A DNA stretch of 64,000 bases, taken from positions 957 through 64,956 of the forward strand of contig JBDKUN010000031.1 of the NCBI GenBank assembly GCA_039679675.1. Direction: 5' to 3'. Positions 1,566 to 58,975 of this stretch are shown in pieces. A model generated the notes under the pieces. It was not told the DNA's origin, did no database searches, and saw nothing but the letters and a program-made list of their open reading frames with translations. The stretch is from Armatimonadota bacterium. Lineage in GTDB: Bacteria > Armatimonadota > UBA5829 > DTLH01. The position numbers were made by a program, and so were the translations under genes. Each line of letters starts with the position of its first letter. Position 1 is the stretch's first letter.

Positions 1566-1994
1566 ACCGACACCTCTTTGTTGTCATTGCATATCTTAAT
1601 ATAGGCCAAAAGCAGCCAAACATCCTTCATGAGCTGTGGGGGATAGAAAAAATGGAACATGGCAAACTCGTCTTATTTCGAAGCAGTACCAAAGATTCTG
1701 AATTGCGAAAGACGCGTGAAGCATTGTTAAATTCTCGACACCTCCGGTGTCGGCTTCGGCAGCAAGCGGTCCGAAGCAAAGTAAAAAAGGATTTATGAAG
1801 ACATGAGGGTCTTGTTGTAGATACTTTAAATCTCCACCATTCGTGAAATCCGTTAAATCCGCGTTTCAAAATGACGGATAGCGGATGTCGATAGAAATAC
1901 AGCCCGAGAGAGTCAGGGACTATGATGGACAAGAAATGAGGAGGATAAGGGATTGGGCCTACAAACCTTTTCACCAACCCCAATCCCCAATCCC

Positions 1995-8438: not shown

Positions 8439-8560
8439 CTATATATGTCCTCGCTTTCGATTGCGGGTTTTCGACTATAGTGCAGCCTAAAATTTTAAGA
8501 CGTGCAAAGTGTAATTATACACCCGGCAGGCAGCTAAAATCTACCAGCCTTCAAGAGTTG

Positions 8561-8740
8561 GTGAGTGCAACGTCATCACGAATGCCCACAACGTCATGCT
8601 GAGCTTGACTCAGCATCCAGGAAAAGAATGGACCCTGAATCAAGTTCAGGGTGACGTCTTTGTCGTCCAGAATGACGTGCTGATTGCGCTGGGTGGCGTA
8701 TTTGCTGTTCAGAGTGACGTATAATTCTTGCAAGAGTGAA
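8561..8740 (+). repeat. Palindromic modular repeat element, copy A (3' of the HAD hydrolase gene)
   Basis: 'acaacgtcatgctgagcttgactcagcatccaggaaaagaatggaccctgaatcaagttcagggtgacgt...aagagtgaa' carries two perfect hairpins. Homologous to 46454-46643 and to the cores of the inverted-repeat arms at about 20040 and 21400. Confidence 0.7.
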
Positions 8741-8746
8741 CTCTGA

Positions 8747-9460
8747 CTACCAGTCGAGAGCTTCGCCGGGTGCTTCGGCCAGGTTAGGCGCAATCCAATC
8801 AGCCAGAGATAGCTTTTCAGCGGAAAACGTAGTGGTCAGCCCCAGACACTTTGCGCCTGCGGCTTTTGCGGCTGCGACTCCGTTTACGGCGTCCTCTACA
8901 ACGAGACAATCCGACGGTGGAATGCCGAGCCGTTCGGCTGCTGTCAAAAATATTTCAGGGTCAGGCTTTTTATGGGTCACATCCAGCCCGTTGACGATTG
9001 CATCGAAGCTTTCAGAAGAAAGGCCGGACTCCCGCAGGTTTATCATCACCTTCACCTTGTCTGCGCTCGATGCGACAGCCAGTTTCAGCCCCTTTTCCCT
9101 GGCTTTCCGGATGAATTCGCGTGCTCCTGTGAGCGGTTCGAGCCTGCCTTTTACGATCTCCCCGTACAGCTCGTAAGTCCGGGCCTTGTCTCTTTCAATA
9201 TCGAGAGGAAAACCGTATTTTTCGGCTACGCCTGAGATATAGCGGTCTTCTCCGGCTCCGACAAACGGAAGATAATCCTCTGGCTTAACAGTAAGGCCAT
9301 GTTCGGCAAACATCCGCGTCGCGGCCTCACAAATATACTTCTCGGAGTCCACCAGGACCCCGTCCATGTCAAAAATAACGCCCCTAATCACCAGTTCTCC
9401 TCGTGGCAGCTTGCAAAAATGTGCTTCAGGATCGAATCCATCCCGAAGCACACTAAGCAT
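8747..9460 (-). CDS. HAD-superfamily hydrolase, subfamily IA (beta-phosphoglucomutase/phosphatase-like)
   Basis: Motif I 'GVIFDMDGVLVDSE' and a C-terminal 'VVEDAVNGVAAAKAAG' motif III region. Confidence 0.7.
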   Translation of the reverse strand: MLSVLRDGFDPEAHFCKLPRGELVIRGVIFDMDGVLVDSEKYICEAATRMFAEHGLTVKPEDYLPFVGAGEDRYISGVAEKYGFPLDIERDKARTYELYGEIVKGRLEPLTGAREFIRKAREKGLKLAVASSADKVKVMINLRESGLSSESFDAIVNGLDVTHKKPDPEIFLTAAERLGIPPSDCLVVEDAVNGVAAAKAAGAKCLGLTTTFSAEKLSLADWIAPNLAEAPGEALDW

Positions 9461-9514: not shown

Positions 9515-11650
9515 TCATTCACCCATCTCTTTCTTTAGTGCATCTTCCAAAGCAGCTTCTACACCTATCCAGGATGTTTCCTCTGTCGGCGTTTTCGGAT
9601 CGAACGGCGTAAGTGCGGCTGCCTGTGTTATGGGAAAAGTGATCTGTGTTCCGTTGAGCGAGAACGTGGCAGATGCTGCTCCAAAATCAACCAGCCTTGC
9701 GTCTTTCAGTGTATCACCTGTTCTTAGTGTTCGCTTTACTGGCCTATCCCCTATTTGAGAATACATAACGGCCTTAGGCTCATTATCATCATCATGCGTT
9801 CTCTGGCCAATATAGTTCCATTCCGAAAGAGAATTCATTACCACAAGCACCTGCGGCTGTGTAGGCGCTGGTTTATCATCAGCTTTAGGGGCAGATTGTG
9901 CGGTTTTACTATAAGCCCTCGGTACCGGCAATCTAATGTCAATCGGCCATGTTGTTCCATCAACAAAGCCGAACGTAAATGTTACGGGATGATTCCAGCT
10001 GTTTTGAGGGCCTCGGTCATTGACACTGAAATAAGAAGGTTTAGGGAGCAAATCTACAGCGGTTACAACACTTCTTAGCGCCTCATAGAAGAGGTCTCTC
10101 TGCTTATTTTCCAATACTGTGAATGAGATACCTCCATTACATGCTTTTTCACGTCGCCTGGGGCTAAGTGAAGCATATAATCGTATGAACTCAGGCCTTG
10201 CTCCGGCGTACGCTATACCTGAATTCTCTAGATCATCCGGCACATTTCCAGGTAAAGCATCGAGTTGTTTCTGGTTCAATAATGAGACTACCTCTGCCAA
10301 ACCATCAAGATCGAATGTGCCATTGGTTTTCGCTGCAACAGCGCGGAGTTTATTTATAGTAGACAGGGGTATGTTTTCAGCAAGTCTATCCGCAAAATGC
10401 CTGGAAACGAGGATTATCTGCTCGTTTTGATAAGCCCAGACATAATCAAGTATGCTATCTGCTGCCAAGTCGAGGGCATACCCAAGCTGTGTATTACCAG
10501 TGACCTTTACCTCCCATACTACTTGAGGCTCAAAAGCAAAGAGTGAATATCCCTTTTGTTTGCAGATATCCTGGATTAAGTCCGTACTGTGATAACGCTT
10601 TTCAGCCGGATGACTAAGGAGTTGTTTGTCTATTTCGATATCAGTCGCATTCCTCAGGCCAAATCTGGGAGGAGTTTCTGTCAAGCGCGTTTCTTTTTCT
10701 TTTTCTATAGCTTCATCGTATAATCTGTAGAAATCAGCTCTCTCCGATTCCAGTGAATCCTCGGCAGCTTCCATAGACATGCCCTTTGCGTTCAGCAGCA
10801 ATGCACGATAATCAGGATAATAAGTAAACTTCGGCTCTACGAAACCCGTTGTTTCGATTCCCGAAAATGGATCGTTAGATTCGATGCATAAAGTTAGCCC
10901 ATACATATCATCATAATTGGTGATCCGCAAAGTTCCGGTGTTAACAAACATACTCTCCAGTTCCTTCACACTCGGAGCATTGTCACCATCCTGTTGTGCA
11001 TGCTTTTTAGCTGACTCTTCTATCCCCCTTCGAGCAGTATTATTAAGAAGCTTTTTCTGCATGTCTGCAGGTAGATCTCGGATATTCACGTTTAAGCCTT
11101 CAGGACTGAAAGACTGGTCAATCTGTTCATCATTGAAGCCGGTAAGTAATTCAATTTCTGTATGATCTGACGAGCAGGTAAGACCCAACACAAGTCGCGG
11201 GTCTGTTTCGGCAAGTGATTGCAACTCTTCTTTAGAAAGGGCCAACGCAGCTCTATATTCGGCAAGACGTTTCTTAACGTACTGTGCGATTCTTTTTTGA
11301 TCTTCTTCATCTGCGGCGTCAGCGAGGCTGCTCCACTTGCTTCTTTCGATGTAGTCCGGTCCGAGCACCTTATATGTGGTCCCATCTGCCGGTTTGATGC
11401 TTATCCACTGGTAGCCCGGCAGGAGGTCAAGCCCCTGTTCTACCTTATCCGTGGATGAGGGGTCCACGTACACCGAAAGTTTGTCTTCGGCTACCGAGTC
11501 ACTTGCCCAAAGCTCGATTTTGGATGCAGCCCTGGCCTTTTCAAGAAGCGTGGTGATGCTGATGCTGTTACTTTTGAGCGGTTCAGCGCTTGCCGGTATG
11601 GATGAAGCAAGTGATAAAACAGATAAGCAGAAAAGCATTACGGTGCGCAT
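9515..11650 (-). CDS. Uncharacterised secreted protein, paralog 1 of tandem triplet
   Basis: 711 aa with signal peptide 'MRTVMLFCLSVLSLASSIPASA/EP'. N- and C-terminal thirds are shared with two downstream paralogs. AAGGAGACGACAA-ATG RBS. No recognisable catalytic motif. Confidence 0.8.
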   Translation of the reverse strand: MRTVMLFCLSVLSLASSIPASAEPLKSNSISITTLLEKARAASKIELWASDSVAEDKLSVYVDPSSTDKVEQGLDLLPGYQWISIKPADGTTYKVLGPDYIERSKWSSLADAADEEDQKRIAQYVKKRLAEYRAALALSKEELQSLAETDPRLVLGLTCSSDHTEIELLTGFNDEQIDQSFSPEGLNVNIRDLPADMQKKLLNNTARRGIEESAKKHAQQDGDNAPSVKELESMFVNTGTLRITNYDDMYGLTLCIESNDPFSGIETTGFVEPKFTYYPDYRALLLNAKGMSMEAAEDSLESERADFYRLYDEAIEKEKETRLTETPPRFGLRNATDIEIDKQLLSHPAEKRYHSTDLIQDICKQKGYSLFAFEPQVVWEVKVTGNTQLGYALDLAADSILDYVWAYQNEQIILVSRHFADRLAENIPLSTINKLRAVAAKTNGTFDLDGLAEVVSLLNQKQLDALPGNVPDDLENSGIAYAGARPEFIRLYASLSPRRREKACNGGISFTVLENKQRDLFYEALRSVVTAVDLLPKPSYFSVNDRGPQNSWNHPVTFTFGFVDGTTWPIDIRLPVPRAYSKTAQSAPKADDKPAPTQPQVLVVMNSLSEWNYIGQRTHDDDNEPKAVMYSQIGDRPVKRTLRTGDTLKDARLVDFGAASATFSLNGTQITFPITQAAALTPFDPKTPTEETSWIGVEAALEDALKKEMGE

Positions 11651-11704
11651 TTGTCGTCTCCTTTATTTATAACTCAATAGACTCCGATAATGGGAACCAC
11701 GGTA

Positions 11705-13843
11705 TCAGTTACTCAACTCTTTCTCTAGAGCTTCTTCCCAAATTTTGTCTACACCCATCCAAGCCGTATAGATTGATGGAGCTTTCGGGTCGAATGGCGC
11801 GAGCGAAGTAGCCTGAGTTATGGGAAAAGTGATCTGTGCCCCGTCGAGAGTGAATATAGCGGATTTTTCCCCGATCTCAACCAGTTTCGCGCCTTCCAGG
11901 GTTTCTCCTACCTTTAATATGCGTTTTACGAGTTTATCTCCTATTTGAGAATACATGATTGCCTTAGTTACGTTATCATCATCATGCTCTCTCCTGCCGG
12001 AATAGTTCCATTCTGCAAGCGATTTCATCACAGTAAGCACCTGCGGCTGTGTAGACGCTGGATTATCAACAGCTTTAGGGGCAGATTGAGCGGTTTTATT
12101 ATTGACCCCCGGTACCGGTAATTGAAGATCGAACGGTAATGTTGTCCCATCGACAAAGCCGAATGTAAATGTTATGAAGTGGTAATTGCCATTCTGGGAG
12201 CCTCGGTCATCAATACTGAAATATGAAGGCTCAGGGAGCAAGTCTACTGCAGTTGCAACACTTCCCAATGCCTCATAGAACAGATCCTTTTGCTTACTTC
12301 CCAATACTGTGAATGAAACACCTCCATTACAGGCACTTTTACGCCGATGAGGACTGAGAGAAGCATATAGCTTTATAAGCGCGCTATTGAGTTTCGCATA
12401 ATATATACCTGTAGCTACTATACCTTTCCCTGCTAAACTTGTAATTGCTAAATCTGTCGGTATATTTTCTGGTAAGGCATTTAGCTGTCTCCAATTCAGC
12501 AATGAGACCACCTCTGCCAAACCATCGAGATCGAATATACCGCCGGTTTGAGCAGCAATAGCTCGGAGCTTATTTATAGTAGGCAGTGGTATGTTTTCAG
12601 CAAGTTTATAAGTGAAATGTCTGGGAATGAAGATTATCTGCCCGTCCTGATAAGCCCAGACATAATCACACAGGTTATCTGCTACCTGGTCCAGCGCAAA
12701 TCCGAGTTGCGTGTTATCAGCAATGGTTTCCCCTCGTGGACCGGGCTCAAAAGCAATGAATGAATACTCTTTTTGTTTGCAGATATCCTGTATGATTTTT
12801 ATGCACATGTCCTGAGGCTTCAGACCGCTTACCTTGACATCAGGAGCGTTCCTCAAGCCGAACCTGGGAGGGTTTTCCGTTAGACGTGTTTCTTTTTCTT
12901 TTTCCTTAATATCCATTAGTATATCGAAGAGATAATCTTCTTTTTCCTGTAAATCTTTGATAGCCTCTGTAGAGATACTCTTTGCACGTAATAGAGATAA
13001 GCGAGATGGATGATAATTAGAATACTTGGAGCCCATGACATAAAACAGACAATAATCAGACAATGGATCATTGGATTTGATGGTTACAGAAAATCCGCCC
13101 ATATCATAACCGGTAAGCTGTAAAGTCCCGGTGTTAATAAGCACTTCCTCCAGTTCTTTCGCGCTCGGAGCACTTGTGCCATCCCGTTTTTTATGCTTAT
13201 TGGCTGACCTGTATATCATCCCTCGAATAATATTGTCCAGGAGATTTTCTTGCATAGCTGCAGGTAGATCACGGACATTCATTCTCAAACCCTGCGGGCT
13301 GAGGACCTGGTTCATCTGCTCATTATTCAAGCTAACAATCAGTTCTACTGCTACGCGAAAGCAGGGTGTGGTAAGGTCATAGACGATTTTTGGGTCTTTC
13401 GCTGCAAGAGACTGAAGTCCGTCTTTAGAGAGAGCCAGTGCTGCTCTATACTCGGCGAGTTGTTTCGCAGCGTATTGCCTAACTCTTTTTTGATCTTCTT
13501 CATCTGCGGCGTCAGCAAGGTTGCGCCACTTGCTTCTTTCGATGTAGTCCGGTCCGAGCACCTTATATGCGGTCCCATCTGCCGGTTTGATGCTTATCCA
13601 CTGGTATCCAGGCAATAGATCAAGCCCCTGTTCCACCTTACCCGCGTATGAAGGGTCCACATACACCGAGAGTTTGTCTTCGGCTACAGAGTCACTTGCC
13701 CAAAGCTCGATTTTGGATGCAGCCCTGGCCTTTTCAAGAAGATTTATGATGCTGATGCTGTTACTTTTGAGCGGTTCGGCGCTTGCCGGTATGGATGAAG
13801 CAAGTGATAAAACAGATAAGCAGAAAAGCATTACGGTGCGCAT
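11705..13843 (-). CDS. Uncharacterised secreted protein, paralog 2 of tandem triplet
   Basis: 712 aa. Its 5' approximately 400 nt are nearly identical to paralog 1. Its 3' approximately 300 nt are nearly identical to paralog 3. Confidence 0.8.
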   Translation of the reverse strand: MRTVMLFCLSVLSLASSIPASAEPLKSNSISIINLLEKARAASKIELWASDSVAEDKLSVYVDPSYAGKVEQGLDLLPGYQWISIKPADGTAYKVLGPDYIERSKWRNLADAADEEDQKRVRQYAAKQLAEYRAALALSKDGLQSLAAKDPKIVYDLTTPCFRVAVELIVSLNNEQMNQVLSPQGLRMNVRDLPAAMQENLLDNIIRGMIYRSANKHKKRDGTSAPSAKELEEVLINTGTLQLTGYDMGGFSVTIKSNDPLSDYCLFYVMGSKYSNYHPSRLSLLRAKSISTEAIKDLQEKEDYLFDILMDIKEKEKETRLTENPPRFGLRNAPDVKVSGLKPQDMCIKIIQDICKQKEYSFIAFEPGPRGETIADNTQLGFALDQVADNLCDYVWAYQDGQIIFIPRHFTYKLAENIPLPTINKLRAIAAQTGGIFDLDGLAEVVSLLNWRQLNALPENIPTDLAITSLAGKGIVATGIYYAKLNSALIKLYASLSPHRRKSACNGGVSFTVLGSKQKDLFYEALGSVATAVDLLPEPSYFSIDDRGSQNGNYHFITFTFGFVDGTTLPFDLQLPVPGVNNKTAQSAPKAVDNPASTQPQVLTVMKSLAEWNYSGRREHDDDNVTKAIMYSQIGDKLVKRILKVGETLEGAKLVEIGEKSAIFTLDGAQITFPITQATSLAPFDPKAPSIYTAWMGVDKIWEEALEKELSN

Positions 13844-13897
13844 TTGTCGTCTCCTTTATTTATAACTCAATAGACTCCGATAATAGGAACCACGGCA

Positions 13898-16054
13898 TCA
13901 TTCACTCATCTCTTTCCTTACAGCTTCTGCCCAGGCTTTGTCTACACCCATCCAGTATGTATAAAATGATGGTGATTTCGGATCGAATGGCGCGAGCGAA
14001 GTAGCCTGAGTTATGGGAAAAGTGATCTGTGCCCCGTCGAGAGTGAATATAGCGGATTTTTCTCCGATTTCAACCAGTTTCGCGCCTTCCAGGGTTTCTC
14101 CTACCTGTAATATGCGTTTTACGAGTTTATCCCCTATTTGGGAATACATGATCGCTTTAAGCTCATTGTCATCATCATGCTCTCGCCTGCCGGAATAGTT
14201 CCATTCTGCAAGCGATTTCATCACAGTAAGCACCTGCGGCTGTGTAGGCTCTGCCTTATCATCAGCCTTAGGAGCAGATTGAGCGGTTTTACTATTATCT
14301 TTGGGTAACGGCAATTGAAGATCGAACGGCAAGGCTGTCTCGTCGGCAAAGCCGAATGTAAATGTTATGGGGTGATACCTGCCATTTGGGGAATCACGGT
14401 CATCGACACTGAAGTATGAGGGTTCAGGAAGCAAGTCTACTGCATTTACAACTCTTCCCAATGCCTCATAGAACAGGGCTATTTGTTTATTTCCAAATAC
14501 TGTGTATGAGACACCTCCATTACATGCTTTTTCACGCCGGCGTGGACTGAGTGAAGCATATAACCTTACGGCGGGTTCCTTAATATAGTCTATACCTGTA
14601 GCTCTTAGGTCATCCGGTGCATTCTCCGGTAAAGCATCGATCTGTCTCTGATTAAGTAGTGGAACCGCCTCCGCCAGGCCGTCAAGATCGAATGTGCCGT
14701 TGGTTTTCGCTGCAATAGCTCGGAGTTTATTTATAGTAGACAGCGGTATACCTGCAGCGAGTCTATCTTCAAAATGCCTGGGAGCGAGAATTAGCTGATC
14801 ATCCTGGTAAGCCCAGACATAATCACCTAAATAATCACGAAGAATACCCAGACTATCCATCGCCAGGTCCAGAGCATAACCGAACTGCATATCATCGGTT
14901 GCCTTTAATCCACGGTTCCGATAAGGTTCAAAGGCAAAGAGTGAACAGCCTTTCTGGCTGCAGACGCTTTGGACGAATTCCACGCCTCGATAATAGGGAT
15001 ATCCTTCCACTACAGGTTTACCAAGAAGCTGTCTGTCTATCCTAAAATCAGGGGCATTCCTCGAGCCGAATCTGGGAGGGGCTTCTGCAAAACGGGTCTC
15101 TTTTTCCTTTGCCATAGCATCAGTCCACAAGTTAAAGAAATAATCTTCTTCTGCGTTCCGTAAATTCCAGGCATCTTCCTTGGACATGGTCTTTTCTCTT
15201 AGATTCAATACATAAATCCAATAATTATCTGTATATGTGGGGCCTATAATAGATGATTGATACCCTCCAAACAAGGGAACATCCGATCTGATGTCCACAG
15301 TAAACCCGCCCGAACCATAACCGGAGAATTGTAGAGTTCCGGTGTTAACAAACACTTTTAGTAACTCTTTTGCGCTTGGAGCATTAGCACCATATCTTTT
15401 TGCCAGTCTTTTAGCTGGCTCATCCACCATTCCTCGAATCCTACTATCGAGAAACTTTTCCTGTTTATCTGCAGGCAAATCACGGACGTTTACTTTCAGA
15501 CCCTGCGGGCTAAGAATCTGGTTCAACTGCTCATTGTTGAAGTTGGCAAGTAATTCTGCTTCTACACGAGAGGACGGGGTGGTAAGGTTACACACAAGCT
15601 GCGGGTCTGTCTCGGCGAGTGATTGCAGTTCATCGTTGGAAAGAGCCATCGCCGCTCTATATTCGGAGAGGCGTTTTTCCAAAAATTCTCTGACTTTTCT
15701 TCTTTCTTCTTCATCTGCGGCGTCAGCGAGGCTGCGCCACTTGCTTCTTTCGATGTAGTCCGGTCCGAGCACCTTATATACAGTCCCATCTGCCGGTTTG
15801 ATGCTTATCCACTGGTATCCAGGCAGGAGATCGAGCCCCTGTTCCACCTTATCTGAGGATGACTGGTCTACATACACCGAAAGTCTATCTTCGGCTACCG
15901 AGTCACTGGCCCAAAGTTCAACTTTGGATGCAGCCCTGGCCTTTTCAAGAAGATTTATGATGCTGATGCTATCACTTTTGAGCGGTTCAGCGCTTGCCGG
16001 TATGGATGAAGCAAGTGATAAAACAGACAAGCAGAAAAGCATTACGATACGCAT
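13898..16054 (-). CDS. Uncharacterised secreted protein, paralog 3 of tandem triplet
   Basis: 718 aa with the same signal peptide and conserved blocks ('KEKETR..PPRFG.RNAPD', 'DYVWAYQ', 'TINKLRAIAAKTNGTFDLDGLAE', 'ACNGG.S.TV'). Confidence 0.8.
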   Translation of the reverse strand: MRIVMLFCLSVLSLASSIPASAEPLKSDSISIINLLEKARAASKVELWASDSVAEDRLSVYVDQSSSDKVEQGLDLLPGYQWISIKPADGTVYKVLGPDYIERSKWRSLADAADEEERRKVREFLEKRLSEYRAAMALSNDELQSLAETDPQLVCNLTTPSSRVEAELLANFNNEQLNQILSPQGLKVNVRDLPADKQEKFLDSRIRGMVDEPAKRLAKRYGANAPSAKELLKVFVNTGTLQFSGYGSGGFTVDIRSDVPLFGGYQSSIIGPTYTDNYWIYVLNLREKTMSKEDAWNLRNAEEDYFFNLWTDAMAKEKETRFAEAPPRFGSRNAPDFRIDRQLLGKPVVEGYPYYRGVEFVQSVCSQKGCSLFAFEPYRNRGLKATDDMQFGYALDLAMDSLGILRDYLGDYVWAYQDDQLILAPRHFEDRLAAGIPLSTINKLRAIAAKTNGTFDLDGLAEAVPLLNQRQIDALPENAPDDLRATGIDYIKEPAVRLYASLSPRRREKACNGGVSYTVFGNKQIALFYEALGRVVNAVDLLPEPSYFSVDDRDSPNGRYHPITFTFGFADETALPFDLQLPLPKDNSKTAQSAPKADDKAEPTQPQVLTVMKSLAEWNYSGRREHDDDNELKAIMYSQIGDKLVKRILQVGETLEGAKLVEIGEKSAIFTLDGAQITFPITQATSLAPFDPKSPSFYTYWMGVDKAWAEAVRKEMSE

Positions 16055-19909: not shown

Positions 19910-19982
19910 ATTTTAGGGAACAGGGAACAGAAATTTGGAGTGCGGAAGCGTTAGCTTCCGCTTTTCTATCGACATTCACCAA

Positions 19983-20296
19983 TTTTTGTAGTGGCCGGTC
20001 TCAGTGCCGGCCATCGTCACCGTAGGTGACGGGAGCTCTCATGCTGCACACATTATCTTTGAACTTAGGAGTTTCAGGGTCCATTCTTTTCCTGGATGCT
20101 GAATCTATGGATTTTCGGCCATAGCCGAAAATCTTCCGGGAGAGTTTCAGGTATTACCTGAAACTCCTTAGTTCAGCATGACGTGGTGGTAGTCCAACAT
20201 GACATACCATACGCTTCGGGATTCTTTTCTTCCCGAAGCACGAGTCTCCACTAATCCCTTTTTCGCGCTTCTTCGCGCATTTCGCGATTCAAAACC
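19983..20296 (-). repeat. Left arm of imperfect inverted repeat flanking the HgdB-like gene (approximately 310 bp, carries a 68-bp nested insertion)
   Basis: Reverse-complement aligns with 21293-21556. Shared modules are a 'cgcgaa' triple repeat, a 'cttcggg...cccgaag' hairpin, 'atgtcatgttggac', the 'cgtcatgctgaa..ttcagcatccaggaaaagaatggac' double hairpin and a 'ggtgacgatggccgg..gagaccggccactaca' tail. Confidence 0.75.
20262..20286 (+). promoter_or_regulatory. Three 'ttcgcg' direct repeats at approximately 10-bp phasing immediately upstream of the HgdB-like gene
   Basis: 'tttcgcgcttcttcgcgcatttcgcgattc' ends 30 nt before the ATG. A mirrored set (cgcgaa repeated three times plus one degenerate copy) lies at 21305-21338. 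Confidence 0.4.
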
Positions 20297-20316
20297 TGAC
20301 AACTGATAGCTATAAA

Positions 20317-21288
20317 ATGGAAATCGGAATTACAACAACAATCCCAGTAGAGATAGTCTACGCAGCCGGACATGTGCCGGTGGACCTGAACAATATTTTC
20401 ATAGCCGCTGATGACCCGCAGTCGCTGGTCGTCCGGGCGGAGCATGACGGCTACCCGAGAAACGTCTGCGGGTGGATAAAAGGAATTTACGGCACCGCGC
20501 TCAATAAAGGTATCAAAACCGTTATAGCCGCGGTAGAGGGCGACTGCAGCCAGACGCAGGCGATGATGGAAACGCTCGAAATGGCAGGTGTAGAGATTAT
20601 CCCGTTCGCGTTTCCATACGGTCGGGACCGCGATATGCTCGCGATGCAGCTCCGCAAACTGGCAAACCGCCTCGATGCTGACTGGTCGGAGGTCTATGAT
20701 TGGAAATCGCGGCTGGACGGCATTCGCCGGAAGATTTGGCAGGTCGATGAGCTGACCTGGAAGGACGGAAAGGTCACCGGCCTCGAAAACCATCTCTGGC
20801 AGGTGAGTGCGAGCGACTTCTGGGGCGACCCAGACAAATTCGAGCATGAGTTGGATAGTTTTATCGCCGAAGCAAGCTCGCGCGAGCCGAAAAAGGCGCA
20901 AATACGGCTCGGTTATGCAGGTATTCCGGCAATTTTCAACGACTTGTATCAGCTTCTGGAGGAGCGTGGAACGTCAGTAGTCTTCAATGAAGTCCAGCGC
21001 CAGTTCTCCATGCCGTTCGAGACGGATGACATAGTCGAACAGTACGCGAGATACACCTATCCCTACGACATTTTCGGGCGGATCGAGGATATCAAACGCG
21101 AGATCGAGCGGAGGGAGATCGACGGGCTGATTCACTACACCCAGAGCTTCTGCTTCAGGCAGATTCAAGACCTGATCGTGAGGAACAATATCGACATCCC
21201 GATTCTGACGCTCGAAGGTGAGTCTCCCGGACCGATAGACGCTCGCACGCGCGTGCGGATAGAGAGTTTCGTGGAGATGCTTGGATAG
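20317..21288 (+). CDS. 2-hydroxyacyl-CoA dehydratase / benzoyl-CoA reductase subunit family protein (HgdB/BcrC/BadD-like, PF06050-type)
   Basis: 323 aa. N-terminal 'IPVEIVYAAGHVPVDL' matches the HgdB 'VPEELVYAAGMVPMG' block. C-terminal 'GLIHYTQSFCFRQIQD' matches the 'GLIVFMMQFCDPEE' block. No activator ATPase gene nearby. Weak or no SD. Confidence 0.55.
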   Translation: MEIGITTTIPVEIVYAAGHVPVDLNNIFIAADDPQSLVVRAEHDGYPRNVCGWIKGIYGTALNKGIKTVIAAVEGDCSQTQAMMETLEMAGVEIIPFAFPYGRDRDMLAMQLRKLANRLDADWSEVYDWKSRLDGIRRKIWQVDELTWKDGKVTGLENHLWQVSASDFWGDPDKFEHELDSFIAEASSREPKKAQIRLGYAGIPAIFNDLYQLLEERGTSVVFNEVQRQFSMPFETDDIVEQYARYTYPYDIFGRIEDIKREIERREIDGLIHYTQSFCFRQIQDLIVRNNIDIPILTLEGESPGPIDARTRVRIESFVEMLG

Positions 21289-21292
21289 CAGC

Positions 21293-21556
21293 TAGGTTTT
21301 GAATCGCGAAGAACGCGAAGGAGCACGAAAGACGCGAAAATGGGATTAGTGAATGTCATGTTTCGGGGCGAAAAGCGATCCCGAAGCATAGGGTTATGTC
21401 ATGTTGGACGACCGCACGTCATGCTGAATCAAGTTCAGCATCCAGGAAAAGAATGGACTCTGAAACTCCTTAGTTCAAGGATGATATATGCAGCATGAGA
21501 GATTCCGTCGTCTGCGGTGACGATGGCCGGGACGGAGACCGGCCACTACAGCATCT
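21293..21556 (+). repeat. Right arm of inverted repeat flanking the HgdB-like gene
   Basis: Begins 4 nt after the stop codon. See the left arm. Confidence 0.75.
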
Positions 21557-21563
21557 CTGTTCC

Positions 21564-22910
21564 CTACTCCCTGTTACCTGTTCCCTCTTTCGGCAACAGC
21601 GACAACTGGCGGTTCGTCGCGGAAAGCAGTGCGGCGGCTGCCGCGCGATATGGGTCAGCGTGTTTTACAACCGCGCTTCCGGCGCATGTGCTGCTGTTTC
21701 TCGGTGTAATCAGAGTCGCAATGACCGATACGACCTCTCTGTCATCCCCTGCTTTGAATGTAATCACGTCGTCGATCATAATGCCGTGATCTGCCGGGAG
21801 CGACTTCGACGCCGCCGAAGCAGTTGCCTCTGCAACTAACCTGAGGAGGCTTCGTCCACCTGTCGAATATCCAGTCACGGAGTGGCTGAACTCTGCATCT
21901 CCGAGCGAGAGCAGGACTTGAACCGTAGTCTCAGCCGGGCTCGTAGAGAGCCGGATGGTCTGAATCTTCAGTCTTGTCTGCTGCGCGCGAGGTGTCACAG
22001 TCTGGACAGGTGCCGCCGCCGGTTGTACTGCAGGCGCAGGTTGAGCTGTCTGTAACTCGGCTGGGGCTGGTTTCGCCGCTTCTTCGGGCTTCACAGGCTT
22101 CGATGCGGTGCAGTTCAAGCTCGCATTGGTGATAAGGTCGTCCAGCATCGCAGCCGAGTGAACCTGTTCACGGCCGCCCGACCTCCGGCCTCCGGCCATG
22201 CCGAATGTTGCGCCGATTTTTTCAGGCAGTCCGGGGATTTCAATTTGGGAGATCTTCTCCATGAGCTGCCTGCCGAACTCCGTCGCGTCAGTCGCTTTCC
22301 GGTAGCTGGCAATTGAGAACTCATCCCCTGCGTACCGGCACAAAAAGTCTTTTGCAGGATCGACAGATGACGACAGAACTTCAGCAACGGACTTCAGCAC
22401 ATTATCGCCCATCACATGCCCGTATTTTTTGTTGAATCTTCCGAACGAGTTCATATCGATGAGGATAACGGAAATCTCGAAACCGTGGTCCAGGGCGCTT
22501 ATTCCCCATTCTCTGAACGCATCCCGCCATGGCAGCTTTGTCAGTGTATCGTAGGACTGTCCAAGCTCCGCTACGATGTCGCTTCGGGAGACAATGCCGA
22601 CAAGTTTCCCGGAATCAACAATAAGGAGGTGGCTGTTTCCGCCGACTTTCATCATCTCCGCCGCCTGGAAGACCGGCGTATCCGACGGGACTGCAGTGTA
22701 GTTCTTGTCCATAACGTCCATGATGGACGAATCCGGGCTCTGGCCCAAGAGAGAAGAACAATACAGCATTCCGACAACGGAGTCGTGGGCGTAGACGACC
22801 GGAAGGGCATCTATCCCATGCCCTTTCAGCAGGATTATCGCGGATTTGACTTGTTGCGCCGGACTTATCCATACCACATCGGCGCTCATGACGTCTTTGA
22901 GTGTCTTCAT
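21564..22910 (-). CDS. CBS-pair + GGDEF-domain (variant 'AGDEF') protein with uncharacterised C-terminal domain
   Basis: N-terminal tandem CBS ('VMSADVVWISP...', 'GIVSRSDIV'). GGDEF fold includes 'ILIDMNSFGRFNKKYGHVMGDNVLK...LCRYAGDEFSIAS'. A Pro/Ala-rich linker is followed by an approximately 150-aa unknown domain. Confidence 0.65.
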   Translation of the reverse strand: MKTLKDVMSADVVWISPAQQVKSAIILLKGHGIDALPVVYAHDSVVGMLYCSSLLGQSPDSSIMDVMDKNYTAVPSDTPVFQAAEMMKVGGNSHLLIVDSGKLVGIVSRSDIVAELGQSYDTLTKLPWRDAFREWGISALDHGFEISVILIDMNSFGRFNKKYGHVMGDNVLKSVAEVLSSSVDPAKDFLCRYAGDEFSIASYRKATDATEFGRQLMEKISQIEIPGLPEKIGATFGMAGGRRSGGREQVHSAAMLDDLITNASLNCTASKPVKPEEAAKPAPAELQTAQPAPAVQPAAAPVQTVTPRAQQTRLKIQTIRLSTSPAETTVQVLLSLGDAEFSHSVTGYSTGGRSLLRLVAEATASAASKSLPADHGIMIDDVITFKAGDDREVVSVIATLITPRNSSTCAGSAVVKHADPYRAAAAALLSATNRQLSLLPKEGTGNRE

Positions 22911-43510: not shown

Positions 43511-43546
43511 AAAAAAGCCCGCAGCACTTTTAGAATGCCGCGGGCT
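43511..43546 (-). terminator. Rho-independent terminator after PEP-CTERM gene
   Basis: Hairpin 'agcccgcggcatt..aatgctgcgggct' followed by T6 on the minus strand. Confidence 0.7.
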
Positions 43547-43565
43547 TGGTTTCAATAAATAAGAA

Positions 43566-44237
43566 CTACTTCTTTCGCCTAATGATTCCGCCTGCCAGAC
43601 CGATAAGTCCGGTCGCGAGTGCAAGAATGCTGCCCGGCTCAGGGACATTTGAAGCTGTCGGAGCCCATGAAACCTCTAGCTTGACTGCTTTACCGTTCGT
43701 AGCGGGCGCAAGATCAGTAGTAGCTGTCTGGTCATATTTTATATTAGTCAAATTGTTCCACTTCAGATCGTAAACGTAGGACGTACCCAAGTCGGTAGGG
43801 ATAACCTTTGACCAACCAACATGCTCACCTGTAGGATCATTAACAACCTTAACCTTAAGTGTATAAGGTGTGTTTCCGATTTTTGCAGGAATGGCGTAAC
43901 TGGCGCTGGGGAAACGCCAACCTAATGAAATCGGCTGTGAATAAGTACTGCCAGCCCATACCAGGACAGTCCAAGTCCTAGATTGTCCTTCGGTTAGGGC
44001 ATTTATCGAATCAACAGATAAAAAGCCCGTTGGTGATACGCTAGGATCATAAACAAAAACACCAGCTTTCGATCCTGAAACCAAGCTTGCAGACCCAGTC
44101 GATGCACCAGATTCGCCTATGCGGGTGTAGTTGGTGCCGTCAACGGTCATGTTGAACTTCCAGCTAGCCATTGCTGTGGAGGCAGTAAAAACAAGGATCA
44201 ATACTACCGCAATCAATGCTACTTTTGAGACTCTCAT
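43566..44237 (-). CDS. PEP-CTERM sorting-domain secreted protein
   Basis: Signal peptide and C-terminal 'VPEPGSILALATGLIGLAGGIIRRKK'. AAGGAG RBS. Confidence 0.75.
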   Translation of the reverse strand: MRVSKVALIAVVLILVFTASTAMASWKFNMTVDGTNYTRIGESGASTGSASLVSGSKAGVFVYDPSVSPTGFLSVDSINALTEGQSRTWTVLVWAGSTYSQPISLGWRFPSASYAIPAKIGNTPYTLKVKVVNDPTGEHVGWSKVIPTDLGTSYVYDLKWNNLTNIKYDQTATTDLAPATNGKAVKLEVSWAPTASNVPEPGSILALATGLIGLAGGIIRRKK

Positions 44238-44270
44238 ACTTTTTCTCCTTTACGTGTAGTGTTGTTTTTG

Positions 44271-44300
44271 GCAAGTCTTCTGCTTACGCTAGAGACCTGC
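44271..44300 (-). promoter_or_regulatory. Conserved 5'-leader hairpin (gcaggucu...agacuugc) upstream of PEP-CTERM gene
   Basis: 8-bp stem including one G-U pair. The same stem with a different loop is at 45449-45477. Confidence 0.45.
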
Positions 44301-44647
44301 TCTTCTCTTGTTGTGAGACCATAATAATGGGAAGTGAATCCCGCATTCCCATTTACTAGCTTATCTATTTTATTAATAGCTTACAATCTTAAAGTTGTCA
44401 ATAGACAATGCAATAATTTTTATTATTGAGTGGAAATTTGTTAAGCTTCATAAACATGATTCGCTAATGAACGTTAAAACGAGATTGAGTGATAATATAT
44501 CCGGTGCTTGCTAATGGCCGTTACTTACAGACAATATGTGATCTTGTAAACGCATTTGAAGACCTCCGATTGGTTGCTTTCCGATATATATCACTGCAAG
44601 AAATATGCCTTCATCGATGTTAATTGCTTCCTGCTATACAGGTTTTA

Positions 44648-44683
44648 TAAAAAAAGCCCGCAGCATTTTGAATGCTGCGGGCT
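44648..44683 (-). terminator. Rho-independent terminator after second PEP-CTERM gene
   Basis: Perfect 13-bp stem 'agcccgcagcatt-ttg-aatgctgcgggct' followed by T7 on the minus strand. Near-identical to 43511-43546. Confidence 0.75.
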
Positions 44684-44708
44684 TGGTCTCGATTAAGAAC
44701 TAAAAGAG

Positions 44709-45407
44709 TTAACTTCTTTTTCTGAAAATTCCGCCTGCCAGACCGATAAGCCCGGTTGCGAGTGCAAGCATGCTGCCCGGCTCAGGAACTGCAGAAGCTG
44801 TAGGAGCCATTGTGACTTGCATCTGGACTGACTTGCCATTCGCAAGGGGAGCAAGATCATACGCGGCTGATGTTTTGCCTTCCGGTATCACCTGAGTATA
44901 CTTTATCGCATTCAGGTTGCTGAATGTTGGTCCAGTAACAACGGTTGAAGTCAGACCGGAGAGATTCCACTCTGTCCCAGCAGTATAAGTGCCTGTCGGG
45001 TCTGTAAGGATTTTGATCTTAAGAGTGTAAGGCACGCTAGCAATGCTGGTGGGAACAGTGGTGCTGCTCTTCCAGGTTATTGTCGCTGTGCTTGATGCAT
45101 AGCTTTCACCAACCCAAGCATACGTGGTCCATGTTCTAATAGGATTCGCGGCAGTTATGGATGTAAGATTAGAGTAAGATACAAACCTTGTCTGCCCCGT
45201 AAACCAAGCATAACAACCAGCGGCTGTTGCAGAAACTGCGCTTGCATTCATGGTTGTCGCAGATGAATCCGTGCCCAGCTGGCAGCCGCTTGAAGCGCCG
45301 CCCGAGATGTTTGTGGTAAAACTCCACTTGGCTTCAGTAGCCATTGCGGTGACAGCAAGCGCCAGGACAAGCACTGCTGCGAGGAGTAATACTTTTGTGA
45401 CCTTCAT
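44709..45407 (-). CDS. PEP-CTERM sorting-domain secreted protein (paralog)
   Basis: 'VPEPGSMLALATGLIGLAGGIFRKRS'. Same RBS context 'aaggagaaaaa..gtATG'. Confidence 0.75.
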   Translation of the reverse strand: MKVTKVLLLAAVLVLALAVTAMATEAKWSFTTNISGGASSGCQLGTDSSATTMNASAVSATAAGCYAWFTGQTRFVSYSNLTSITAANPIRTWTTYAWVGESYASSTATITWKSSTTVPTSIASVPYTLKIKILTDPTGTYTAGTEWNLSGLTSTVVTGPTFSNLNAIKYTQVIPEGKTSAAYDLAPLANGKSVQMQVTMAPTASAVPEPGSMLALATGLIGLAGGIFRKRS

Positions 45408-45448
45408 ACTTATTTTTCTCCTTTACCCTAAAGTAGTGTGTGGTCTCG

Positions 45449-45477
45449 GCAAGTCTTCTTATGTAATAGAGACCTGC
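45449..45477 (-). promoter_or_regulatory. Conserved 5'-leader hairpin, second copy
   Basis: See 44271-44300. Confidence 0.45.
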
Positions 45478-45844
45478 TCTTCTTTTGGGATACGGCTTTT
45501 ATAGAAGATGAAATCTGCTGTTTTCTCCTATCCAACCGTTATTAACTACATACTCTAGTAATAGCCAACAACCTCATGTTTGTCAATAGGTAAATTTAAA
45601 TTAAATTTGATTGTAAAGATATGTTAACGAATATCACACAGGGGCAATGTAGAAAGGGGAAATATGACTGGCTCTAGACGGGGCATAAAAAAGAGAAAGG
45701 CCGGCTTGCATCAAGCAGGCCGACCTGTAACTCAATCTATCTTCACTTTAACCGGCTTTTCATCCGGTTTGGAGTGGTTTTTGCTATCTGGAATGTGCAA
45801 GTATGTAAAGGTTCGTGAAGGCTGCTGTGTAAAAGCAGTTGGCA

Positions 45845-46291
45845 CTATTCGTATTTTTCCTTTTTCTCACTGAGCCGCTTTTCCCAGCCCTTGACGGCTA
45901 ACAAAATCATTAATGGCAAGGAAAATGGAAGAATAGCTATTTCCAGCATATCCCAATCCAGCTTGCCGCTATGGCTGAAATCGGACAATGTACCCAAGAT
46001 CATGCAGACGGCACTGATAATCGCTATCCCAAGAAAGTAGTAGTAATATCTTCTGTGTGCAGCTAAGGCCCGCTCCTCGCAGTCAATATGCGATCTCAGG
46101 TTCCTACCTGGAAGTCTTAAAGATGAATCTGAAGGAAGAGATTTTTGATAGTCTTCTACAGGTTTACCGCACCACGTGCAAATCCGCCCATTTTCGAGCT
46201 TTTCCTTCCAATCCGGATTGATTTTAGCTTTGATTTGGTAGTAGATAAAAAGACCTGCCAATATAACGATAGCTAGTATAACTCCAGGCAT
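45845..46291 (-). CDS. Hypothetical membrane protein with CxxC pair
   Basis: 148 aa with two or three hydrophobic helices and 'RICTWCGKPV'. No family assigned. Confidence 0.35.
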   Translation of the reverse strand: MPGVILAIVILAGLFIYYQIKAKINPDWKEKLENGRICTWCGKPVEDYQKSLPSDSSLRLPGRNLRSHIDCEERALAAHRRYYYYFLGIAIISAVCMILGTLSDFSHSGKLDWDMLEIAILPFSLPLMILLAVKGWEKRLSEKKEKYE

Positions 46292-46343
46292 TGAAGGCTC
46301 CTGATCAATTGTTTTCTCTTTCGGATATACAGATATTATTTAC

Positions 46344-46412
46344 AAAAAAAGCCCGAAGCACTACCTCAAACTGCAAATCTGCACTTGCAGCCCGTGATAC
46401 TGCTGCGGGCTT
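46344..46412 (-). terminator. Putative compound terminator hairpin followed by T7 (minus strand)
   Basis: 'aaaaaaagcccgaagca...' shares its 5' arm with the two PEP-CTERM terminators. Confidence 0.4.
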
Positions 46413-46453
46413 AGCTGCAATATACTCTGTGGCTACTTGTATGTCAATAAAAA

Positions 46454-46643
46454 TGGGTAAGAGCTCAGAATAATATTATGCTGAACTATCACAACGTCAT
46501 TCCGAGCTTGACTCGGAATCCAGGAAGAAAATGGACCCTGAATCAAGTTCAGGGTGACGTGCTCCCATCCATGATGACGTGCTCCCATCCATGATGACGT
46601 GCTGGTTGTTCAGGGTGGTATATAATTTTCATTAAGAGTGAAA
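46454..46643 (+). repeat. Palindromic modular repeat element, copy D (flanked by 13-bp direct repeats 'atgtcaataaaaa')
   Basis: Aligns with 8561-8740. Contains hairpins 'attccgagcttgactcggaat' and 'accctgaatcaagttcagggt', plus an internal 20-bp tandem duplication 'gacgtgctcccatccatgat' present twice. Confidence 0.7.
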
Positions 46644-46650
46644 TGTCAAT

Positions 46651-46684
46651 AAAAAGGGTGGATTTCTAAGAAATCCACCCTTTT
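46651..46684. terminator. Bidirectional rho-independent terminator immediately after hydA
   Basis: 'aaaaa-gggtggattt-ctaag-aaatccaccc-tttt'. Confidence 0.75.
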
Positions 46685-46686
46685 AG

Positions 46687-48459
46687 TTAATCTATCTTCA
46701 CCTTAACCGGTTTTTCTTCCGGTTTGGGGTCTGGTTTTATTCCACGGGGTGTGTAGTGGGTGTGCAATAGCTCGTGGGACTTGTGGGAGAGCGGTTCGCC
46801 CAGGAACTCTTTGTACAGCTTCTGGACTGACGGGTTCTCGTGCGATCTTCGGACCGTCATTGCCTCGTCCTCTTCATAGATCGCCTGAGCCCGTTTCTTT
46901 CGGATCTCTTCATTAGTCGGGATAGGCTGGCCGCCGCCGCCGATGCACCCGCCGGGGCAGCACATTATCTCTATGAAGTGATAATCGGCAAATTTGCCCG
47001 ACTTGATCCCTTCCATAACCTCTCTTGCGTTTGCCAGTCCGTGAGCGACTGCTGCTTTAACTGTAATTCCGGCTACCGGAATCTCCGCCGAGCGCACTCC
47101 ATCCATACCTCTGACTGCCGTGATATTCACATCATCGAGTTCGGTCCCCGTAAGCACGGCATAAGCAGTCCTGAGCGCTGCCTCCATGACGCCTCCCGTG
47201 CTTCCGAAGATGACCGCAGCACCGGTAGACTCTCCAAGCGGATCGTCATACTGTCCGTCCGGCAGGTTCGGCAGGTCGATTCCTGCTTCCTTCATCATCG
47301 CCGCTGCCTCGCGGGTCGTCAGGACATAGTCCACGTCCTTGTAACCGCTGTCGGCCATCTCCGGCCTGTCGCACTCGTATTTCTTCGCTGCGCACGGCAT
47401 AATCGATACGGATACGATGTCCTTCGGGTCGATTCCAGCCTTTTCGGCGTAATATGTCTTGGCTAGAGCGCCGAACATCTGCTGCGGGCTCTTGCAGCTC
47501 GATACATGCGGCAGAAGCTCGGGGTAGAAGTGCTCGATGAACTTGATCCAACCAGGCGAGCAGGATGTAAGCTGGGGCAGCACCCCGCCTTCCTTTATCC
47601 GGTGGATGAGCTCGTAGCCCTCTTCCATAATCGTAAGGTCAGCCGTGAAGTCGGTGTCGAACACCTTGTCGAACCCCATAGCCTTTAGCGCCGTGACCAT
47701 TTTGCCTGTAACGCGGTGGCCGGGCTCCATACCGAACTCTTCGCCTATCGCCGCGCGGACAGCGGGAGCTGTCTGAACCACAACGTGCTTCGCCGGGTCG
47801 TGAAGCGCCGCCCAGACCTGCTGGACTGAACTCTTCTCACGAAGCGCGCCGGTGGGACACCTATTGATGCACTGGCCGCAGTTTACGCAGACGGCTTCGA
47901 CCATAGTCTTCCCGAGCGCCGGGCCGATTGACATATCCCATCCTCTGCCGCTTGCGGAAAGGGTTCCCACACTCTGGAGTTCGTGGCAGACCCGGATGCA
48001 CCGCTTGCACATGATACATTTTTCGGGGTCGCGGATGACGGATGCGCTGGAGGCATCTTCTTCCTGAATTCGTCGCTCACCGCGGAACGGGACATCCTCT
48101 ATTCCATACTCTTTCGCCAGCTTTTGCAGCTCGCATTTCTGGTTTTTTGAGCAGGTGAGACAGTCCTGCGGGTGATTAGCAAGCAGGAGTTCGATTATCA
48201 TCTTCCTGGCCTGCCGTACCCTCGGCGAGTGGGTCATGATGCTCATTCCATCCGAGACGGGGAAGGCGCACGCCGGTTGCAGGAGCTTTTGCCCCTTTAC
48301 ATCCACTATGCAGATGCGGCAGACTCCCTCCGTGCGGAGGTCTGGATGGTGGCATAGTGTCGGAATATAAATCCCCGCGCCTTCGGCTGCCTGGAGGATT
48401 GTCATCCTTTCTTCGGCAACTACGGGGAGACCGTTTATCGTAAGTGTGATCTTAGACAT
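46687..48459 (-). CDS. hydA: [FeFe]-hydrogenase catalytic subunit (HndD/HydA type, with N-terminal 2Fe-2S and 4Fe-4S ferredoxin domains)
   Basis: H-cluster motifs 'TSCSPGWIKF'-type (L1), 'MPCAAKKYE' (L2) and 'EIMCCPGGCIGGGGQP' (L3). The ATG at 48459 lies 2 nt after the upstream stop and has a GAGGTGG RBS. Confidence 0.85.
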   Translation of the reverse strand: MSKITLTINGLPVVAEERMTILQAAEGAGIYIPTLCHHPDLRTEGVCRICIVDVKGQKLLQPACAFPVSDGMSIMTHSPRVRQARKMIIELLLANHPQDCLTCSKNQKCELQKLAKEYGIEDVPFRGERRIQEEDASSASVIRDPEKCIMCKRCIRVCHELQSVGTLSASGRGWDMSIGPALGKTMVEAVCVNCGQCINRCPTGALREKSSVQQVWAALHDPAKHVVVQTAPAVRAAIGEEFGMEPGHRVTGKMVTALKAMGFDKVFDTDFTADLTIMEEGYELIHRIKEGGVLPQLTSCSPGWIKFIEHFYPELLPHVSSCKSPQQMFGALAKTYYAEKAGIDPKDIVSVSIMPCAAKKYECDRPEMADSGYKDVDYVLTTREAAAMMKEAGIDLPNLPDGQYDDPLGESTGAAVIFGSTGGVMEAALRTAYAVLTGTELDDVNITAVRGMDGVRSAEIPVAGITVKAAVAHGLANAREVMEGIKSGKFADYHFIEIMCCPGGCIGGGGQPIPTNEEIRKKRAQAIYEEDEAMTVRRSHENPSVQKLYKEFLGEPLSHKSHELLHTHYTPRGIKPDPKPEEKPVKVKID

Positions 48460-58755: not shown

Positions 58756-58975
58756 GTGTTGCCTGAGACTCTCCCGGAAGATTATCAGATGCCGTTTCAA
58801 TCCCTACACCTGGATTCGTCTGGTTGTTTGCCGATAGTCTCAGCCATATAAAGAAAGCCCTGAATGGCGTCCAGATAATTCTTGTTAATTCTTGATTGTG
58901 ATAATTCTTGATTGATGCTTGGCTAATATGGTAATTTAGTTCATATGTCGTGCTAGCTCAGGGAGGATTAATAAC

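Follow-up and report, generated by a model that had tools for sequence, protein, structure and literature searches.

The palindromic repeat found in the window (the whole 64,000-nt stretch of DNA analysed here) is very probably a MITE with ends of the IS66 family (ISBst12 type), mobilised in trans and belonging to a narrow lineage of Armatimonadota. It is a real and well-defined, but ordinary, kind of bacterial repeat. The original prediction had described a dispersed family of palindromic, modular elements of MITE-like character, and both parts of this description were confirmed: the conserved core occurs four times in the window and at least 55 times in a sister MAG, and the elements have terminal inverted repeats and 8-bp target-site duplications.

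Occurrence of the repeat family

The 23-nt core (CCAGGAAAAGAATGGACCCTGAA) was matched with at most two mismatches at four sites of the window, 8617(+), 20073(-), 21442(+), and 46520(+), and no match was obtained in 100 dinucleotide-preserving shuffles. The elements at the first and last of these sites, referred to as copy A and copy D, were 92% identical across 71 nt in the repeat finding of the window. The four sites had been reported as four copies of the element; the core is indeed present at each of them, but the two sites beside the HGD-D gene consist of the core plus hairpin 1 within 300-nt inverted arms and are not full elements.

A scan of the pattern CCAGGAANNNAATGGACNCTGAA against one genome per species returned 54 loci, of which 50 came from one MAG, Armatimonadota bacterium 6_bin.213 (the sister genome), three were chance matches inside coding sequence, and one, from a Rhodospirillales MAG, was a near-identical stretch of 40 nt. 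The 50 loci of the sister genome contained at least 55 strict core matches, to be set against the hundreds of genomic copies that the original prediction had expected from the density in the window, and many of these copies were located at contig ends, in keeping with a repeat that breaks assemblies. The MAG of the window is related to the sister genome, as its HGD-D protein was 93% identical to the 6_bin.213 orthologue; a protein identical to it (100%) is encoded on an NCBI contig of 67,844 bp. The 23-nt core pattern gave a single chance match in the JGI metagenome collection, which indicates that the family is narrow, and copy A had no BLASTN match in the plasmid and phage collections. The repeat family is thus restricted to a narrow lineage within the uncultured Armatimonadota. 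Approximately 10 of the 55 core copies in the sister MAG were without terminal repeats, so MITE transposition is not the only way in which the core module spreads or persists.

The match in the Rhodospirillales MAG (OZ244199.1), which belongs to a different phylum, is the 40-nt stretch CCAGGAAACAAATGGACCCTGAATCAAGTTCAGGGTGACG in positions 430-540 of locus L044. Ahead of it stands a hairpin (GTCCTGAA-CTTGA-TTCAGGAC) with the loop of the family and a different stem. The stretch was the only copy retrieved by the pattern scan of that genome. Horizontal transfer or contamination of the MAG could account for it.

Termini and target-site duplications

Complete copies with defined ends were collected from the sister MAG (26 copies) and, together with copies A and D of the window, amounted to 28. 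These elements were 137-306 nt long and non-coding, transposase homology was absent from them, and all 28 were intergenic. The alignment of the copies showed sharp ends, with GTAAGAGTTCAGAGTTGATGAG as the element start and CAAGAGTGAACTGTTAC as the element end. The family termini (GTAAGAGTTCA... on the left and ...TGAACTnTTAC on the right) are imperfect inverted repeats of 17 nt, in which the left repeat GTAAGAGTTCAGAGTTG agrees with the reverse-complemented right end (GTAACAGTTCACTCTTG) at 14 of 17 positions. The motifs previously noted at the ends of both full copies ('aagag...' and '...tataatt...aagagtgaa') correspond to these terminal inverted repeats, and only the limits had to be corrected, the true ones being slightly wider (Table 1).

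A perfect 8-bp target-site duplication was observed for 12 of 24 complete sister-genome copies, and three more had a 7/8 match; when left and right flanks were mismatched as a control, 7/8 was attained in only 0.4% of the pairings. The duplicated 8-mers, in which the left flank is repeated at the right (for example, AAAAGTAG, TAAGATTA, CTGTATGC, TGCATCCC, CAAGCGAG, and CAAATACC), were unrelated sequences with no common motif.

Two MITEs were flanked by a direct repeat longer than 8 nt that takes in the tip of the right terminal repeat, namely GAGTGAACTGTTAC+TATTCTA at locus L001 (viewed on the minus strand) and ATGTCAAT+AAAAAKGG at copy D (46441-46456 with 46643-46658). From their sequence, these longer repeats look like tandem MITEs whose first copy was later lost for the most part by deletion.

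Relationship to IS66-family insertion sequences

Locus L047 carries a 1,396-bp defective element between the same two termini as the MITE, and the first ~130 nt of this element are MITE-like. Its frameshifted ORFs matched PF03050 (DDE_Tnp_IS66; 6.6e-21 and 2.3e-13) and contained the motifs HADETGW, CWVHLLRD, and SDNNAAERSVRP, and its left 320 nt comprised mosaic modules in place of the first ~200 nt of the insertion sequence (IS). As read from its composition, L047 is a hybrid that attests to the coexistence and shared ends of IS and MITE, with no clean series from parent to derivative. Intact relatives of its transposase were 70-74% identical and encoded by a single ORF of 443-460 aa, and some of them were annotated as IS66 family transposases from Armatimonadota. 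These relatives sit within ISs of 1.44-1.52 kb that begin with GTAAGAGTTCA... or GTAACAGTTCA... and end with ...TGAACTCTTAC, and termini as in the MITE were found on the intact ISBst12-type ISs of loci L059-L064 and L067-L069 (ends in Table 1). Since the similarity between the MITE and the intact ISs is confined to the terminal 11-16 nt, the repeat belongs with the type II MITEs of PMC10969869. ISDge4, a published active element of the ISBst12 group, combines one ORF of 449 aa with terminal repeats that start GTAAC... and a direct repeat of 8 bp (PMC12898284).

From the shared ends and the duplication length, we infer mobilisation in trans by an IS66-type transposase. A DDE transposase of the ISBst12 type would bind the GTAAGAGTTCA ends and move the non-coding element in trans, and its insertion at a target site would duplicate 8 bp. 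Neither the window nor the ~400 kb of sister-MAG sequence analysed yielded an intact transposase with MITE ends, and tblastn of the L047 transposase fragments against the window and all loci retrieved L047 only. Clear 8-bp duplications were not seen for the intact IS relatives, which are derived from metagenomes and lie on short contigs.

Modular palindromic interior

The interior of the MITE is mirror-symmetric, modular, and unrelated to the IS. The modules follow the order of left arm, hairpin 1, core (CCAGGAAGAAAATGGA, the centre), hairpin 2, and right arm, and the two hairpins flanking the core are each 8 bp. The left arm contains one to three units of ~21 nt with ACRTCATGCTGAA, and the right arm contains one to eight units with TTCAGGGTGACGT; the half-sites in these units (left arm, ACGTCATGCTGAA; right arm, TTCAGGGTGACGT) vary in number, and at locus L007 of the sister genome a 21-nt unit is repeated 4.9 times in tandem. 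Hairpin 2 comprises CCCTGAA, the loop TCAAG, and TTCAGGG. As the loops of hairpin 1 (CTTGA) and hairpin 2 (TCAAG) are mutually complementary, the centre can fold as two hairpins or as one long hairpin, and the folding z-scores were -2.8 and -2.9.

An optional 68-nt palindrome, module X, replaces the hairpin-2 loop in approximately half of the sister-genome copies. Intergenic mosaics that are not MITEs, for example the two arms beside the HGD-D gene, also contain the core and hairpin modules. An extra small palindrome (GGCCAATCATATATTGGCTG plus TTAATTAA) was observed nested within the GATTTTCGGC/GCCGAAAATC hairpin of module X at two sites in opposite orientations (L047 3270-3220 on the minus strand and L051 ~2650-2750), which suggests that modules insert into hairpin loops.

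Copies A and D in the window

Table 1. Positions of the repeat copies, mosaic arms, and dispersed modules in the window, and ends of the related intact insertion sequences
Feature	Position	Strand	Sequence or remark
Dispersed module	1806-1897	-	85% identity with the L047 defective IS (interior); same mosaic repertoire
Left target-site duplication, copy A	8542-8549	.	TACCAGCC; 7/8 identical to 8748-8755
MITE copy A	8550-8747	+	198 nt
Hairpin 1, copy A	8596-8616	+	ATGCTGAG, loop CTTGA, CTCAGCAT
Conserved 23-nt core, copy A	8617-8639	+	CCAGGAAAAGAATGGACCCTGAA; palindrome centre
Hairpin 2, copy A	8632-8652	-	ACCCTGAA, loop TCAAG, TTCAGGGT
Right-arm half-site units, copy A	8645-8720	+	TTCAGGGTGACGT, TCCAGAATGACGT, TTCAGAGTGACGT; spacing ~21-32 nt
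Right terminal inverted repeat, copy A	8731-8747	+	CAAGAGTGAACTCTGAC
Right target-site duplication, copy A	8748-8755	.	TACCAGTC
Left mosaic arm	19990-20316	-	Upstream of the HGD-D gene; core at 20073-20095
Right mosaic arm	21289-21548	+	Downstream of the HGD-D gene; core at 21442-21464
Flanks of copy D	46449-46456 and 46651-46658	.	AAAAATGG and AAAAAGGG
MITE copy D	~46457-46650	+	~194 nt; both termini degenerate
Hairpin 1, copy D	46499-46519	+	ATTCCGAG, loop CTTGA, CTCGGAAT; compensated stem variant
Core and hairpin 2, copy D	46520-46555	+	
Variable-number right-arm module, copy D	46555-46603	+	Tandem 20-nt units TGACGTGCTCCCATCCATGA, 2.5 copies
Isolated module X fragment	58739-58786	-	Directly after the SpoU methylase gene
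IS ends, L067			Left GTAAGAGTTCACTCTTCC, right CCCTGAACTCTTAC
IS ends, L068/L069			Left GTAAGAGTTCAGTCCTGC, right GCCTGAACTCTTAC
IS ends, L059-L063			Left GTAACAGTTCAGTCTCC, right GACTGAACTCTTAC

The left terminal repeat of copy A is degenerate, with a 7-nt deletion (TTCAAGAGTT-GGTGAGTG). The HAD hydrolase gene (8747-9460, minus strand) overlaps the right edge of this copy, as its TAG stop codon (8747-8749) combines the final MITE base (8747) with the two adjoining bases of the right duplication (8748-8749). In the sister population this site is likewise occupied: the contig stops inside a MITE that belongs to another right-end subfamily. A relative with an 87% identical HAD protein has the same stop context (GACTGGTAG) and no MITE; its flanks have diverged, and no exact empty site was found.

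Copy D is located directly beyond the intrinsic terminator of the hydrogenase operon, and a wider direct repeat (ATGTCAATAAAAAKGG) is present on both sides of it. In the sister genome (L071), the corresponding spacer, also behind the hydrogenase gene and orthologous to that of the window, has its own terminator and no MITE; here, too, the flanks have diverged and no exact empty site was found. The consensus left end, with up to three mismatches, had no match in copy A or copy D. Given this and their eroded termini, the two copies are probably immobile relics.

Further observations were made in the surroundings of both copies. Beyond the HAD hydrolase gene, three tandem paralogous genes on the minus strand (9515-16054) encode proteins of 711-718 aa with 66-83% DNA identity among the genes; the first of them had no Pfam match, and the sister genome has a 718-aa homologue at the same place. 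Small paralogous genes, one of them with a PEP-CTERM protein annotation, form an array at 43511-46430, and a similar terminator-like motif (AAAAAAGCCCGCAGCAC) follows each array gene (43511, 44650, and 46345). Between the window (46650-46690) and L071 (7755-7800), the position and the T-tract of the hydrogenase terminator are kept, while its stem is wholly different (GGGTGGATTTC vs GGGGCGGCCAGC).

Compensatory changes and alternative explanations

Among ~55 copies, the hairpin-1 stem was GCTGAG/CTCAGC in ~33 and TCCGAG/CTCGGA in ~17; rarer compensated forms (TCCGGA/TCCGGA and GCTGAA/TTCAGC) also occurred, and the stem was broken in a few copies. The paired exchange from ATGCTGAG/CTCAGCAT in copy A to ATTCCGAG/CTCGGAAT in copy D was as originally claimed, and compensation did not vanish in the larger sample: in 13 distinct variants, 96% of the cells were paired, and four of the eight pairs had changed on both sides. 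Sliding the register by 1-3 columns reduced the pairing to 17-32%, and the observed covariation score was never attained in shuffled controls. Apart from some recombinants, the stem types track subfamily markers such as the loop type and the AAAAG/AGAAA variant of the core, and a manual tally of private mutations gave ~0.6% of sites in the stems and ~0.8% in the neighbouring flank.

The original prediction took the stem changes to imply selection on structure, a step that the enlarged sample did not demonstrate. The covariation rests on only about 3-4 independent events and does not prove selection, as selection on structure, templated correction in quasi-palindromes, and inheritance from master copies fit it alike. 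It is quite possible, if short of probable, that the stems were compensated without any selection, through templated correction (strand switching from one hairpin arm to the other) and descent from a small number of master copies. Some 50 of the 55 copies have one of two stem types, which follow the other subfamily markers; the few independent events suffice for such a process, and private mutations occur at similarly low rates in stems and flank. Against it, four different pairs changed on both sides with half-changed intermediates nearly absent, a pattern that purifying selection on the masters would give as well. If the hairpins reflected an RNA function rather than mobility, the family would be a structured non-coding or cis-regulatory RNA (a terminator or stabiliser) under host selection, which we consider unlikely. 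The covarying stems and the stable fold are in keeping with that reading, and on the strand opposite the core (the minus strand), hairpin 2 is followed by a T-rich tract (CCATTCTTTT) that is terminator-like in both window copies by a consensus scan only. In tandem gene contexts, this strand was co-directional with the genes in 10 of 13 cases under a stricter ORF filter (11 of 11 in the first tally), but the bias was gone over all copies downstream of a gene 3' end (16 vs 9, from crude ORF calls), so that the orientation is a hint of terminator function and not a finding. The U-tract of hairpin 2 is interrupted, and a canonical terminator already follows the gene upstream of copy D. Rfam 15 returned one tRNA only for the whole window at the gathering score, and with relaxed thresholds copy A scored at best 23 and 19 bits, where 91 and 97 would have been required. 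Transposition as the origin of the copies is, moreover, evident from their terminal repeats and target duplications. On the favoured reading as a MITE, the copies may also influence transcript ends, as hairpin 2 plus CCAUUUUCUUCC on the strand opposite the core would resemble a weak intrinsic terminator.

Two other kinds of mobile palindrome were weighed against a MITE with IS66-family ends, and the partner proposed in the original prediction, a RAYT or IS200/IS605 gene serving a REP/BIME element, was not borne out. The repeat is intergenic and built of hairpins, its modules form mosaics and nest in hairpin loops, and ~10 core copies are without terminal repeats, all of which would suit extragenic palindromes of the REP/BIME type spread by RAYT. 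To our knowledge, however, REP/RAYT elements have neither terminal inverted repeats nor target-site duplications, whereas the complete copies here have 17-nt terminal inverted repeats, 8-bp duplications, and ends matching IS66-family ISs; no RAYT gene was seen in a search that covered less than the whole genome. This origin is accordingly very unlikely. Descent from IS200/IS605 as a PATE, moved as single strands by a Y1 TnpA, would explain the subterminal hairpins, and the compensated stems would fit the recognition of folded single-stranded DNA. We know of no member of the IS200/IS605 family with a target duplication or terminal inverted repeats, and its members insert beside a fixed motif of 4-5 nt; the terminal repeats and 8-bp duplications of unrelated sequence found here make such a descent extremely unlikely.

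Comparison with known elements

Bacterial type II MITEs resemble their ISs only in the terminal repeats (review PMC10969869), and MITEPsy1 (PMC3189936) and MITECca01 (PMC9769881) are examples of them. The repeat described here is likewise short, non-coding, intergenic, and present in many copies, with IS-shared terminal repeats, a target duplication, and transcripts that would fold to a stem-loop. It differs from the type II MITEs named in having a partner of the IS66 family (ISBst12 group), and from an internally deleted IS in that its interior is a modular palindrome with a variable number of units. Like the ISBst12 group (ISDge4, PMC12898284), it has termini beginning with GTAA(G/C) and an 8-bp direct repeat, and the related elements found here encode a single DDE_Tnp_IS66 transposase of ~445-460 aa; unlike an ISBst12 IS, the MITE is without transposase and has only the 11-16 terminal nt in common with intact ISs. 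No MITE described in Armatimonadota, nor one of IS66 family or derivation, was found in the literature.

The interior is reminiscent of the pneumococcal BOX element (boxA, a variable number of boxB, and boxC) and of SPRITE (PMC3049150). In both cases, terminal modules surround variable short tandem units, the elements cluster and insert into each other, and one module resembles a Rho-independent terminator. A boxB unit is ~45 nt long, whereas the units here are ~21 nt and symmetric on both arms as inverted half-sites; a further difference is that the present repeat has a clear target duplication and a clear IS partner. It is not expected to be related in sequence to BOX or SPRITE. Intergenic mosaic elements are known as the BIMEs of enterobacteria and the NIMEs/dRS3 of Neisseria. 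The repeat shares with them short palindromic modules in varying intergenic order and a content that differs between close relatives; in contrast to them, no RAYT or IS110-type partner was identified here, and one member of the repertoire is packaged between transposon ends.

The MITE opens no new mechanism or long-standing question. Its value is for annotation, as the repeat breaks Armatimonadota MAG assemblies, overlaps a stop codon, and yields spurious ORFs. It also documents a MITE with IS66/ISBst12-type ends and shows that an uncultured, poorly known phylum carries modular intergenic mosaics of a BOX/BIME-like kind, with turnover between genomes whose HGD-D orthologues are at ~93% protein identity.

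Mosaic arms around the HGD-D gene and dispersed modules

The ORF at 20317-21288 encodes a 2-hydroxyacyl-CoA dehydratase (PF06050; HGD-D), and the two mosaic arms extend outwards from its edges. The left arm, reverse-complemented, aligns with the right arm (21289-21548) over ~300 nt with ~85% identity, and the repeat finding recorded a 117-nt inverted repeat (19987-20103 and 21434-21550). In the left arm, the 68-nt module X (20104-20171) separates the two halves of hairpin 1 (20096-20103 and 20172-20179), and more palindromic modules follow; hairpin 1 of the right arm (21421-21441) comprises ATGCTGAA, TCAAG, and TTCAGCAT. The arms are intergenic mosaics, not MITEs bounded by terminal inverted repeats. 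Their pieces recur singly elsewhere in both genomes, and in the sister genome the inner arm modules are shared and the downstream arm has no core.

The gene order PTPS, S-methyltransferase, MTHFR, radical SAM, HGD-D, and GGDEF is common to the window and the sister genome. A relative at 78% protein identity has only 14 bp, and no repeats, between its radical SAM and HGD-D genes, so the arms arrived later. The HGD-D gene was also considered as the cargo of a transposon or mobile cassette, and this was ruled out because it is a conserved syntenic chromosomal gene that is free of repeats in the distant relative.

We regard it as doubtful that the hairpin-core-hairpin unit (a near-identical 40-nt piece of which is the stretch in the Rhodospirillales MAG), module X, the CCCGAAGC hairpin, the GGCCGG hairpin, and others are separate palindromic modules that spread by loop insertion and recombination, independently of the IS66 transposase, and were captured once between transposon ends. 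If this were true, the module population would represent repeat spread by a loop-targeting route with no named enzyme, and the same loop-insertion process could have built the mirrored 300-nt arms around a conserved gene.

Seen as a whole, the region at 19915-21586 is a 1.67-kb palindrome with the HGD-D gene as its 'loop', the modules of the arms being in mirrored order, and GGGAACAG motifs are present at both outer ends (19915-19930 and 21557-21585). Such a palindrome would form a very long stem in mRNA and would be an inversion substrate in DNA. Dispersed modules that are also present in the interior of the defective IS of L047 were observed at 1806-1897 and 19934-19971, and one of them is a terminator-like hairpin (GCGGAAGC-N4-GCTTCCGC) followed by TTTTCT.
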